A stretch of 64,000 nucleotides of DNA from assembly GCF_036261875.1 (NCBI RefSeq), contig NZ_DATAJZ010000020.1, forward strand, positions 14,299 to 78,298, written 5' to 3'. This document shows positions 54,765-63,615 of this stretch, piece by piece; the first letter of the stretch is position 1; each line of letters begins with the position of its first letter. The notes beneath the pieces are model-generated. The model saw only the letters and a program-made list of their open reading frames with translations. It was not told the DNA's origin and ran no database searches. Origin of the DNA: Sphingopyxis sp. (GTDB taxonomy: Bacteria; Pseudomonadota; Alphaproteobacteria; Sphingomonadales; Sphingomonadaceae). The position numbers and the translations under genes are program-made.

Positions 54765-55133
54765 TTAATTGAGCCCCCGCCGTCCGAACACCGGCGCGCG
54801 CTGGTTCAGAAAAACCGGCGGCGTCTCCGTCGCGGCACTTCGCTGCGCAGCCTCCAGCGCCTTGTAAAGCGCGCCGTGCAACAGCTCATAAGGAAAGCGC
54901 ACCCCCATGCGGTCGAACTCGGACCACATGACGACGGCATAAGTGACCTCGCCCGCATAATGGATTTCGCAGCGCGAGCGCGCCGGCATACTCGCCCCGT
55001 CGATCCGCGCCCCGCCTTCGGACAGGTCGGCGATGCGGCCGCCGACGAAGTTGAGAACGCCGTTGACCATGACCTCGATCGAGACCGGAGTCCGCTTGTG
55101 GCTGCGTGCCGTGGGGGCGCGAAAATTCGTCAT
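54765..55133 (-). CDS. Stand-alone PilZ-domain protein (c-di-GMP receptor)
   Basis: RSHKR (RxxxR) followed by DLSEGG (DxSxxG). 122 aa. Confidence 0.7.
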   Translation of the reverse strand: MTNFRAPTARSHKRTPVSIEVMVNGVLNFVGGRIADLSEGGARIDGASMPARSRCEIHYAGEVTYAVVMWSEFDRMGVRFPYELLHGALYKALEAAQRSAATETPPVFLNQRAPVFGRRGLN

Positions 55134-57451: not shown

Positions 57452-57460
57452 CACGCCGAT

Positions 57461-57559
57461 TCCCCGAGCGAAGCCGAGGGGCCATGCCGAGCGCAGTCGA
57501 GGCGGCGGCGATGCGGGTTCTCGCTCCGCTCGAACGGGCCCCTCGGCTTCGCTCGGGGA
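57461..57559. repeat. Family F palindromic element upstream of the bufferin-like operon
   Basis: TCCCCGAGCGAAGCCGAGGGGCC, about 53 nt, then GGCCCCTCGGCTTCGCTCGGGGA, giving perfect 23-nt arms. Confidence 0.7.
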
Positions 57560-57694
57560 ACCGGAGAAGGGCGAGTTAAATTGCTTTCGCCTGTGATCGA
57601 GATCATGCGACAAGGCCGCCGGGTCGTGTGACAAGAACAGCGGGCGACGAGTCGCCCCACTTCTATCGGGACAACCAAGGGAAGGGACGATCAC

Positions 57695-58006
57695 ATGAAC
57701 AGCCACAAACTCGCCAGTCTCATCGCCGCGTCGGCGACCGCGGTCGCGCTTTCGGGCGCCGCGCTCGCCGCCGATCCGGCGCCGCACGCCAAGCGCGTCG
57801 GCGCGAGCGACACGGTCAAATGCTATGGCGTCAACAGTTGCAAGGGCACCTCGGACTGCAAGACCGAGGCGAGCTCGTGCAGCGGCGACGCCGGATGCAG
57901 CACCGCAGGCAATAGCTGCGCGGGCGCGAACAGCTGCAAGGGCAAGGGCTTCAAGAAGCTCGCCGCGGGTAAATGCCTGACCGACGGCGGCAAGATCGCG
58001 GTCTGA
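57695..58006 (+). CDS. bufA: Bufferin-type RiPP precursor (DUF2282/BufA-like), Sec signal peptide, 8 Cys
   Basis: Signal peptide ending ALA|AD. The core runs [53 protein letters not shown]. It lies directly upstream of the DUF692 and DUF2063 genes. Confidence 0.7.
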
Positions 58007-58017
58007 CGACAACGGAC

Positions 58018-58039
58018 GGGTCCGGCCGGCGCCGGACCC
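58018..58039 (+). promoter_or_regulatory. GC hairpin between the precursor and the MNIO gene
   Basis: GGGTCCGGC-CGGC-GCCGGACCC, 12 nt after the precursor stop, with no U-tract. Confidence 0.4.
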
Positions 58040-58061
58040 GAACCGCCGACGGAGAGCGAGC

Positions 58062-60939: not shown

Positions 60940-63615
60940 ATGGTTGGACCAGACGAGCGGGATGGGCGGAATTTGGGGGTTCGATTCAACATCGTACGGC
61001 CGGCGGCCAGCGATTTGCCCGAAGGGGAATCGTTGCTCGCGACACCGGAGTTCGTGGCGCGCCTGATGCGTGTCGCGCAGCTCTGGCACTATGTCCTTAT
61101 CGCCCGCGTGCTGGCCTTTTTCGCCTTTGCCTTCTTTCCCGGCGTTGCGGGTTTTCTCGCGCGTCCGTCGCTGTGGCTGGTCATGGCCGCCGGCCTTGGT
61201 TGCGACCTTGTGCTGACGATCCTCGGCCAGCTTTCGCGAGTCCGGCCGCCGCCTTCGGGCCGCTGGCTGCGGCGCGGGGTCGGGGCCTGCTTCGCGTTTC
61301 TCATTGCCGGAACGATGCTGCATTCGGCGGCGATGTTCGCCGCGACCGCGGCGCACGACGGCCGCCTCTATTTCGATGCCTTTTCGGCCATCAAGCTCGG
61401 CTCGATCCTCGTCGCCGCCGCCGCCGCGGCGATCGTCCGCCCGGCCTTTTTCGCCTTTGCCGGGGCGATGGCGCTCGGCGGCGCGATCGGTATCGCCTCG
61501 TGGCCGTTCGGGGTGGCGGGGCTCGTCTTCCTCGGGCTCCTCATCGTCATGTTGCGCGAGGATGTCCGGCACCAGCGCCGCGCCACGCACGTCAGCCGGC
61601 GGACGATCAGCGAGCAGCAGCGCGCGCTTGGGCTGATGCGCGATTTCGAGCGGGCGGGGCGTGGCTGGTTCTGGGAAACCGACCGTTATGGCCATCTCGT
61701 CTATATCTCGCCCCCGGTCGCGGCCAAGCTGGGCATCCCGCAATCGGACCTTTTCGGCCGGCCGTTCACCGACCTGATCCGCAAGCGCGTCGGCAATGAC
61801 GAGAGCGAGGAGCGGACGCTGGGATTCAGCCTGTCATCGCGGACGCCCTTCAACGAACTGACCGTCCAGGCGGCGGTGTCGGGCGAGGAACGCTGGTGGT
61901 CGATATCGGGCCATCCGATCAGCAACGAGCTCGGCAATTTCCAGGGTTTTCGCGGCAGCGGCACCGACCTTACCGACAAGAAACGGTCGGAGCGCGAGAT
62001 CAACCAGCTCGCGCGCTATGACACGCTCACCGGCCTCGCCAACCGGCTCCACATCACCGACCTGCTCGAACGCGCGCTGCGCAATCATATGGGGCAGGCG
62101 CAGCCGTGCGCGCTGCTGCTGATGGACCTCGACCGCTTCAAGGCGGTCAACGACACGCTCGGCCATCCGGTCGGCGACCAGTTGCTGCAACAGGTCGCGG
62201 GGCGCCTGACCCAGATCGTCGGCGACAAGGGGCAGGTGGGGCGGCTCGGCGGCGACGAGTTCCAGATCGTGCTGCCGCAGATCGTCCAGCCCGAGAAACT
62301 GGCCGGGATCGCCAATGCGATCATCCTCAGCCTCGCCAAGCCCTTCGCGATCGAGGGCGAGCAGGTGCGGATCGGTTCGTCGATCGGCATCGCGGTGTCC
62401 GAAGGGCAGGGGGTGTCCTCGTCGGCGCTCGTCCGTAACGCCGACCTCGCGCTCTACGCGGCCAAGGATGCGGGGCGCGGCGTCTATCGTTTCTACGCCG
62501 ACGCGATGCACAATCAGGCGAGCGAGCGAAAGGCGATCGAGGATGCGCTGCGCGACGCGCTAGCCCGGGACGAGTTGGCTTTGCTCTATCAGCCGATCGT
62601 CGATGTGAAGCGCGAGTATGTCACTGGCTTCGAGGCGCTGATCCGCTGGCGGCGCGAGGGCGGCGAGGTCGTCAGTCCGTCGAAATTCATTCCCATCGCC
62701 GAGGAATCGAACCTGATCGTGCCGATCGGCGAATGGATCATCCGCACCGCCTGCGCGACGATCGCGCGGCTCGGCCCCGGCTACCGCGTCGCGGTCAATG
62801 TCTCGCCGCGCCAGTTCGCCAATGAAAAGCTGCCCGCGACGATCCTGAACGCGGTCGCGGCGGCAGGGATCGAACCCGGGCAGCTCGAGCTCGAGATCAC
62901 CGAAGGCGTCTTCCTCGACGAAAGCCCGGAAAATCTGGAGATGTTCCAGAAATTGAAGCGCACCGGCGTGCGGCTTGCGCTCGACGATTTCGGCACCGGC
63001 TATTCGGCGCTTGGCTATCTGAAGAAGGCGCCGTTCGACAAGATCAAGATCGACCAGAGCTTCGTGCTCGGCGCCGTCGACAGGAGCAGCATGAACGCCG
63101 CGATCATCTCGTCGATCGTCGGCCTCGCGACCGCGCTCGACATGGAGACGACCGCCGAGGGGGTGGAGACGCACGACGACCTCGCGCTCGTCCGCGCGCT
63201 CGGCTGTAGCCACGTCCAGGGCTATATCTATGGGCGTCCGATGGAATTGGGCGAGGTGCTGGCGCTGCTGCGCGAGGGCGGCGGAGCGGTGGTCGCGCGC
63301 GGCTTCAAAAGCGCGCGCGAGCCCCGGATGCGGACCTTCCGCAGAATTCAAGTGGAAAGCGGCGGCTATCACTACGAAGCCATTGTCCGCAACCTGTCGT
63401 CGCGCGGCGCGCTGATCGAGGGGCTGTGGAACGTGCCCGAAGGCACGACGCTGACGCTGGAGCTGACCCCCGACGTCCGGCTCGATGCCGAGGCGCGCTG
63501 GTCGGCGGGCAATCGCGTCGGGGTGCGCTTTGTCGAAGCGATCGACATGACGGTCTTCGCCGGCCCCCCGGCGCAGCCCCGAGCCTTCAAGCAGCGCGCC
63601 TATCGCGCGGCCTGA
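60940..63615 (+). CDS. Membrane-anchored PAS-GGDEF-EAL protein with a C-terminal PilZ domain
   Basis: About 6 TM segments and a PAS-like region (WFWETDRYGHLVYIS). GGDEF motif (RLGGDEFQIV). EAL motifs (EALIRW, DDFGTGYS, KIDQSF, EGVET). PilZ motifs (RMRTFRR...NLSSRG). Start uncertain (60940 or 61066). Confidence 0.85.
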   Translation: MVGPDERDGRNLGVRFNIVRPAASDLPEGESLLATPEFVARLMRVAQLWHYVLIARVLAFFAFAFFPGVAGFLARPSLWLVMAAGLGCDLVLTILGQLSRVRPPPSGRWLRRGVGACFAFLIAGTMLHSAAMFAATAAHDGRLYFDAFSAIKLGSILVAAAAAAIVRPAFFAFAGAMALGGAIGIASWPFGVAGLVFLGLLIVMLREDVRHQRRATHVSRRTISEQQRALGLMRDFERAGRGWFWETDRYGHLVYISPPVAAKLGIPQSDLFGRPFTDLIRKRVGNDESEERTLGFSLSSRTPFNELTVQAAVSGEERWWSISGHPISNELGNFQGFRGSGTDLTDKKRSEREINQLARYDTLTGLANRLHITDLLERALRNHMGQAQPCALLLMDLDRFKAVNDTLGHPVGDQLLQQVAGRLTQIVGDKGQVGRLGGDEFQIVLPQIVQPEKLAGIANAIILSLAKPFAIEGEQVRIGSSIGIAVSEGQGVSSSALVRNADLALYAAKDAGRGVYRFYADAMHNQASERKAIEDALRDALARDELALLYQPIVDVKREYVTGFEALIRWRREGGEVVSPSKFIPIAEESNLIVPIGEWIIRTACATIARLGPGYRVAVNVSPRQFANEKLPATILNAVAAAGIEPGQLELEITEGVFLDESPENLEMFQKLKRTGVRLALDDFGTGYSALGYLKKAPFDKIKIDQSFVLGAVDRSSMNAAIISSIVGLATALDMETTAEGVETHDDLALVRALGCSHVQGYIYGRPMELGEVLALLREGGGAVVARGFKSAREPRMRTFRRIQVESGGYHYEAIVRNLSSRGALIEGLWNVPEGTTLTLELTPDVRLDAEARWSAGNRVGVRFVEAIDMTVFAGPPAQPRAFKQRAYRAA

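Follow-up and report, generated by a model that had tools for sequence, protein, structure and literature searches.

Bufferins are a very large and recently defined class of modified peptides that buffer copper. In Buf1, the terminal cysteines form a disulfide while the central ones are converted to 5-thiooxazoles, and copper is bound 1:1 via two of these thiooxazoles in a 2N2S coordination (PMC11626156). Caulobacter Buf2 shows a mass shift of -18 Da, with four central cysteines at -4.03 Da each and a likely CysI-CysVI disulfide, and absorbs at 305 nm (PMC11626156). Buf2 precursors carry six cysteines in 90% of cases and twelve in the rest (PMC12452194); forms with eight or ten were not found described in the bufferin literature examined. 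Here, we report on a 64,000 nt-long stretch of Sphingopyxis sp. DNA (contig NZ_DATAJZ010000020.1, positions 14,299 to 78,298 of the forward strand; hereafter, the window) in which bufA2, for short bufA, encodes a BufA2 precursor with eight cysteines, followed by bufB and bufC. Judged by sequence, the locus is a three-gene bufferin-2 (buf2ABC-type) cluster with bufA as its precursor gene.

An eight-cysteine member of the BufA2 family

Profile searches assign the window peptide to the BufA2 bufferin family. The NCBIfam model NF050166 (BufA2) matches it from end to end, in two stretches, with 81.6 bits against a curated cut-off of 60, and a home-built profile of 105 canonical six-cysteine members scores 86.6 bits. 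BufA2 is matched by 81/81 aligned relatives, whereas the DUF2282 model (PF10048) of BufA1 matches only 1/81 (E ≤ 0.01) and gives no match to the window peptide at E ≤ 0.1. Both the start motif and the KGKGF...C..GG end of the peptide equal the consensus of canonical six-cysteine BufA2. A first-pass annotation of this DNA had proposed a bufferin precursor beside an MNIO (DUF692) gene, expanded relative to the described forms. Indeed, the profile matches to the peptide and to its neighbor bear this out, with eight cysteines here versus the canonical six. The same annotation had counted the cysteines as twice a canonical four. Because the peptide belongs to BufA2, the baseline is six rather than four, and the excess amounts to one pair. 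Its description of the two ends as BufA1-like does not hold either, given that these motifs belong to the canonical BufA2 consensus and PF10048 finds no match. A weak Pfam DUF7640 match (21.8 bits, cut-off 28.1), common to 27/81 relatives, adds nothing to the BufA2 assignment. Searching PDB sequences returned no relative of the peptide, and Foldseek, run with a low-confidence model of it, returned nothing meaningful.

The cysteines lie at residues 43, 49, 55, 62, 68, 75, 81 and 94, i.e. at gaps of 5-5-6-5-6-5-12, and the open reading frame limits, cysteine positions and spacing proposed previously were reproduced exactly. At the N-terminus, a lysine (K5) precedes a hydrophobic stretch from residue 6 to 25 in the hydrophobicity profile, and both alanines of the predicted cleavage site, A23 (-3) and A25 (-1), are unchanged across 11 orthologue clusters. 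This looks like a Sec-type signal peptide, and our rule-based reading agrees with the ALA/AD site and the core of ~78 aa named in the first-pass annotation, placing the core at A26-V103 (78 aa; monoisotopic mass, 7527.49 Da if unmodified). The sequence context of the cysteines is less uniform than had been suggested: the pattern (N/S/D/G)-(S/D/G)-C-(K/S/A)-(G/T) applies to C49, C55, C62, C75 and C81 and partially to C68, but not to C43 (VKCYG) or C94 (GKCLT). A lysine follows only C49, C55 and C81, the residue after C62 and C68 being serine and that after C75 alanine. Which cysteines are modified and which are not cannot be read from these letters, a caution of the earlier annotation that we uphold.

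Compared with its six-cysteine relatives, the window peptide has 13 extra residues, inserted after CysIII and before CysIV (residues 58-70 in the MAFFT alignment). All canonical positions (C43, C49, C55, C75, C81 and C94) are present and aligned, the register being broken by an additional x6-C-x5-C, and the total of eight is neither six nor twelve. The canonical six-cysteine profile aligns as two overlapping pieces, with profile positions 3-64 covering residues 2-68 and positions 43-84 covering residues 60-101, and thus with an overlap at residues 60-68. C62 and C68 thereby take the places of CysIV/V in one piece and of CysII/III in the other, and so make up an extra C-x5-C unit. The architecture can be written as CysI-x5-(C-x5-C)-[x6-(C-x5-C)]n-x12-CysVI, with n=1 in canonical members, n=2 here and n=3 in ten-cysteine forms. 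Profile alignment against BufA1 and BufA2, which had been put forward as the test of novelty, hence gives a split answer: the peptide falls inside the 6/12-cysteine group, but its cysteine register is not the same.

AlphaFold2 (AF2) models of the window peptide and of a canonical relative were both of low confidence (mean predicted local distance difference test (pLDDT) score, 59.8 and 65.2, respectively), and we relied on them solely for the order in which the secondary-structure elements occur. A first strand containing CysI (residues 40-44 here, 34-38 in the canonical relative) is followed by a mostly coiled cysteine-rich region, a second strand (86-90 here, 67-71 in the relative) and a helix containing CysVI (91-96 here, 72-77 in the relative). 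Since the elements follow the same order in both models, the insertion would lengthen the center of the peptide and leave its two ends untouched.

The eight-cysteine pattern is under constraint. Across 11 protein clusters with 72-90% identity, none of the eight cysteines varies, and G67 of the inserted unit is as invariant as its C62 and C68; the ratio of non-synonymous to synonymous substitution rates (dN/dS) of the core ranges from 0.04 to 0.22 versus eight orthologues. In a closely related Sphingopyxis metagenome-assembled genome (MAG), bufA differs by synonymous changes only and the protein is identical; the closest representative genome, MAG bin C_3_2, shares ~91% identity over a 728-column alignment of the region, is closer still within bufA, and encodes an identical peptide. 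The invariant cysteines, the low dN/dS and the synonymous-only changes in the related MAG together argue that the eight-cysteine pattern did not arise by chance. The exact register recurs in nine species-representative genomes of Sphingopyxis/Sphingomonadales, including those of the cultured S. soli BL03 and Sphingopyxis sp. H073, and the neighboring bufB, bufC and fatty-acid desaturase genes are shared with other Sphingopyxis sequences wherever contigs are long enough.

Other registers and tandem precursors

The BufA2 family comprises at least 6710 clusters at 90% identity, and as only the best 120-150 matches were listed per search, the frequencies that follow are bounds only. The canonical register (5-5-6-5-12) accounted for 66/103 matches in one search and for 80 of the best 150 representatives in another. 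Eight cysteines were found in 13 of the best 150 representatives at 50% identity when the search was seeded with the eight-cysteine profile, and in 1/106 newly listed matches when it was seeded with the canonical profile. At 50% identity, the nine-genome Sphingopyxis set forms one cluster; among the matches listed, three further clusters (P0125, P0127 and P0307) have the window register. No MNIO gene was called beside P0125, which stems from another lineage. P0307 contains two near-identical 13-aa units (GKNSCKGAHNSCK and GKNSCKGAHNACK), which suggests a recent unit duplication and illustrates how such expansions may arise.

Eight-cysteine forms occur in at least two registers. The second, 5-5-6-5-5-5-12, arises through an insertion of 12 residues, placed as in the window peptide, and was seen in two Bacteriovoracaceae MAGs (L014:2905-3264 and L015:1582-1875), whose proteins have an additional lipobox-like cysteine; it is independent of the window register. 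Ten-cysteine forms (5-5-6-5-6-5-6-5-12; n=3) make up at least seven clusters. We also noted an 11-cysteine relative (P0012; 5-5-6-5-6-5-5-6-5-12) on a 515-bp contig with 1.2x coverage (L054), which could represent either one more expansion or an artefact of assembly. Taken together, the registers indicate that the eight-cysteine form is a minor, recurrent variant of a known family, refining the "6/12-Cys" description into a series of six, eight and ten cysteines plus the tandem-domain form with twelve.

In six Sphingopyxis genomes (L006-L010, L012), a canonical six-cysteine bufA2 gene encoding 94 aa lies ~150-190 bp upstream of the eight-cysteine gene (e.g., L007:2532-2816 and L001:9555-9839), and a GC-rich inverted repeat follows it in four loci (L007-L010). 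This gene is absent from the window and from L011, where no precursor other than the eight-cysteine peptide was found beside bufBC; gene content thus varies between close relatives. Throughout, the eight-cysteine gene is the copy adjacent to bufB. The pairing of a canonical with an expanded precursor also exists in a lineage unrelated to Sphingopyxis (L050:1058-1764 and L051:343-1049), in which a ten-cysteine BufA2 comes after an 86-aa six-cysteine BufA2 with a cysteine at a lipobox-like position in its signal region, with MNIO and DUF2063 genes behind. BufA2 therefore also grows by single two-cysteine units inserted into one scaffold (the eight- and ten-cysteine forms), often in tandem with a canonical copy before one enzyme pair.

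In three six-cysteine peptides from short ENA contigs (P0013, P0014 and P0015), a leader and N-terminal half identical or nearly identical to those of the eight-cysteine group are joined to a different, canonical six-cysteine C-terminal half, a composition that could stem from recombination of tandem paralogues or from a chimeric assembly. A Rhodospirillales MAG (L028:2744-4278) has four six-cysteine bufA2-like genes in tandem.

The gene cluster and its non-coding elements

Table 1 Features of the bufferin cluster, in coordinates of the window
Feature	Coordinates	Strand	Basis
Conserved upstream block, candidate promoter/operator of the eight-cysteine gene	57586..57640	+	near-invariant in eight Sphingopyxis loci
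Short GC hairpin GGGCGACGAGTCGCCC in the presumed 5' leader	57642..57657	+	predicted stem, position conserved across loci
Shine-Dalgarno-like GGAAGGGA, 7 nt before ATG	57680..57687	+	read from sequence
bufA2 (eight-cysteine form), 103-aa precursor	57695..58006 (stop codon included)	+	ATG start; open reading frame, profile match, dN/dS
Predicted Sec signal peptide, residues 1-25, cleavage ALA/AD	57695..57769	+	hydrophobicity profile and invariant A23/A25; rule-based
13-codon insertion E58-T70 carrying the extra pair C62 and C68	57866..57904	+	gap in all six-cysteine relatives (MAFFT alignment)
GC-rich stem-loop between bufA and bufB, lacking a U tract	58017..58040	+	conserved across loci
bufB, MNIO-family (DUF692) bufferin maturase, 283 aa	58062..58913	+	NF050167 MNIO_BufB 384.6 bits (cut-off 310); PF05114 8e-109
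bufC, DUF2063 partner (PME1/RRE-type), 257 aa	58906..59679	+	PF09836 87.7 bits (cut-off 27.2); start overlaps bufB end by 8 nt

On the same strand as bufA, bufB starts 55 bases downstream of it (Table 1). Its product matches PDB entry 3BWW (5e-42) and reads ERDD at residues 252-255 (D254, D255), where 3BWW, an EGKCG-type MNIO, has ERDF. In BufA2-type systems, an Asp at this MNIO site reportedly makes contact with the Lys that follows the substrate Cys, and the site is reported to separate "Cys-Lys" (Asp) from Lys-Cys (Phe) maturases. The ERDD sequence of BufB agrees with the Cys-Lys side of this published Asp/Phe specificity switch. The oxazolin-type models HvfB (251 bits) and HvfC (NF050145; 56.5 bits, on BufC) stayed below their cut-offs in the cluster. 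BufC additionally gave a weak NGO1945_C match, and the PDB sequence search returned no match for it. Next to bufC comes a fatty-acid desaturase gene in convergent orientation; the cluster contains no DoxX gene. The order asparaginase, bufA, bufB, bufC, desaturase (minus strand), GGDEF/EAL is kept in a Sphingopyxis MAG.

The conserved block upstream of bufA contains the string GTCGTGTGACAA and a palindrome, TGTGATCGAGATCA (57592-57605; TGTGATCnAGATCA across loci), which has one exact match in the window and which we take to resemble a CRP/FNR-type site. Sequence farther upstream is not conserved across the eight loci, and the block is a candidate promoter or operator. No sigma-70 promoter consensus was found upstream of bufA; a consensus of the extracytoplasmic function (ECF)/SigF type was not searched for. 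At the Shine-Dalgarno position, the string AAGGGAAGGGACGATC is conserved in 8/8 loci. The stem-loop between bufA and bufB folds at -28 kcal/mol in the window, with a 10-pair stem, and its consensus structure over eight loci comprises 11 pairs, with compensatory changes at five. It has no U tract, and no intrinsic terminator was found in the cluster. A possible role of the stem-loop is that of an attenuator or mRNA stabilizer setting the ratio of precursor to enzyme.

An inverted repeat (57456-57564) is located between the asparaginase-like gene and the upstream block of bufA, with 41-nt arms that are 85% complementary and 27 nt apart. Its core occurs once in the window; at the corresponding place, the contig of a related MAG (L005) breaks off within a similar GC-rich palindromic stretch. 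The repeat could be an element resembling repetitive extragenic palindromes (REP) or miniature inverted-repeat transposable elements (MITE), or a strong terminator. Farther out, the region is flanked by a gene for a small PilZ-domain protein (54765-55133, minus strand) and by a large open reading frame (60940-63615, plus strand), whose syntenic gene in L001 encodes PAS, GGDEF and EAL domains along with a weak PilZ match.

Proposed function, alternatives and described relatives

Drawing on work on Caulobacter Buf1 and Buf2 (PMC11626156) and on captophorins (10.1101/2025.11.18.689057), we propose, with a probability of about 0.8, that the window encodes an expanded BufA2 precursor of a buf2ABC-type cluster whose central cysteines would become thiooxazoles and serve copper buffering, possibly at higher capacity. 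BufB and BufC would oxidize the central cysteines to 5-thiooxazoles in the cytoplasm, upon which Sec would export the peptide and signal peptidase would cut after A25. C43 and C94 would form a clamping disulfide, and pairs of thiooxazoles would chelate periplasmic copper, thereby buffering copper stress. With three C-x5-C pairs, as many as six thiooxazoles could form on the 78-aa peptide (predicted mass, 7527.49 - 26.2 Da), which could then bind more copper per molecule than a six-cysteine bufferin.

Several points weigh against this proposal. Near the cluster, no copper-responsive regulator and no SigF/NrsF pair were identified, and the link to copper consequently rests on homology. The published BufA2 recognition model involves a Lys after the Cys, which is lacking at C62, C68 and C75; since only C49, C55 and C81 precede Lys, modification of the former three constitutes the main uncertainty, and for C62 and C68, oxidation, persistence as thiols or a second disulfide are all conceivable. 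As to the origin of the insertion, the two 13-codon units share 19/39 nt, which is not above codon shuffles (p ~0.2), and we reject a recent internal DNA duplication. Being no more alike than shuffles, the units point to an insertion that either is old or, in this lineage, did not come about by simple duplication; that a unit was duplicated is accordingly deduced from protein periodicity and from relatives, the DNA of this gene showing no sign of a recent event. Finally, the inserted unit is the least confident part of the AF2 model, with pLDDT <50 at residues 65-70.

The missing lysines and the low confidence of the inserted segment would fit the chief rival reading, a peptide whose extra pair is structural: C62 and C68 would then form a second disulfide or stay free thiols, only the four canonical central cysteines would be converted to thiooxazoles, and the insertion would alter stability or shape at unchanged copper capacity. 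There is precedent in that two cysteines are already purely structural in Buf1 and Buf2 (PMC11626156). Nevertheless, we consider a structural pair unlikely, given that C62 and C68 align with CysII/III and CysIV/V, all modified in Caulobacter Buf2, that A, S, H or Q can follow CysIII/CysIV in canonical members, and that some Sphingopyxis orthologues do have a Lys after C62. A series of six, eight and ten cysteines built from one unit is also more easily explained by added ligand pairs.

Far less probable is the hybrid advanced in the first-pass annotation, i.e. a chimera of DUF2282-type BufA1 ends and a middle in the CKG-repeat style of BufA2. Although the predicted folds of BufA1 and BufA2 are related (PMC11626156), the first Cys of the window peptide is followed by Tyr as in BufA1 (Cys12-Tyr13), and precomputed PF10048 matches exist on some canonical six-cysteine relatives, the profile tests reported above contradict such a composition: PF10048 is absent here and nearly so among the relatives, the BufA2 model spans the peptide from end to end, and the end motifs are those of canonical BufA2. 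Moreover, the Caulobacter buf1 operon includes a DoxX gene, which has no counterpart in the cluster. We therefore rejected the hybrid. Least probable of all appears a decaying or non-substrate bufA2 paralogue, drifted, unprocessed and without function. In six related genomes, the gene is the second of two tandem precursors, the first being canonical, and redundancy of this kind could permit drift. However, purifying selection on the core is strong (see dN/dS above), none of the cysteines varies, and the gene is preceded by a conserved block and a Shine-Dalgarno sequence of its own; it is the sole precursor found by bufBC in the window and in L011, and always the bufB-adjacent copy.

Returning to the expanded, modified precursor, a more general model is conceivable, which we put forward tentatively and hold to be somewhat less than an even bet. 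BufA2 might be modular, each C-x5-C pair corresponding to one copper site formed by a pair of thiooxazoles, and lineages might tune their periplasmic copper capacity with two, three or four pairs (six, eight or ten cysteines), one BufBC pair processing canonical and expanded precursors encoded in tandem. The window peptide, as the only precursor found by bufBC, would then carry six thiooxazoles and ~3 Cu. A known family is refined, and the mechanism is not new. What the variants offer is a natural series for asking how many cysteines a BufB/BufC pair modifies, whether a Lys is needed after the Cys, and how copper stoichiometry relates to the number of cysteine pairs.

The closest described system is Buf2 of Caulobacter vibrioides (Buf_6/12Cys, NF050166; the "Cys-Lys" captophorin group). 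The two peptides share the family model, a Sec-type signal peptide, the start motif, the KGKGF...C..GG end and the six canonical cysteine positions. The operons agree as well in consisting of bufA, bufB (MNIO) and bufC (DUF2063) with no DoxX gene (PMC11626156), and the window BufB has the Asp that marks Cys-Lys-type maturases. Unlike C. vibrioides Buf2, however, the window peptide contains C62 and C68 as a third C-x5-C pair, and hence six candidate modification sites versus four, a core of 78 aa versus 61 aa, and three central cysteines with no Lys next to them.

Twelve-cysteine Buf2 precursors belong to the same family and have likewise raised their cysteine number by duplication. In contrast to the window peptide, in which only the inner two-cysteine unit is repeated, they carry the complete domain twice (5-5-6-5-12, a linker of ~22-52 residues, 5-5-6-5-12). 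Indeed, the window peptide has one CysI strand and one x12-CysVI helix, and the pieces of the canonical profile overlap on it instead of lying side by side, so that it is no tandem-domain form. Buf1/BufA1 (DUF2282, PF10048) is related in its predicted fold and in Sec export, but differs in having four cysteines and, in the Caulobacter buf1 operon, a DoxX gene (bufD), as opposed to eight cysteines, no PF10048 match and no DoxX gene here.

With the EGKCG-repeat captophorins (oxazolin/HvfA, fontiphorin and gonophorin), the window system shares membership in a copper-associated class that is modified by an MNIO together with a DUF2063 protein and that varies in its number of cysteine repeats; fontiphorin carries seven thiooxazoles. 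Their repeat is the Lys-Cys 5-mer EGKCG, set in 17-residue units, whereas the window peptide contains no EGKCG, and their maturases have Phe at the site at which the window BufB has Asp.

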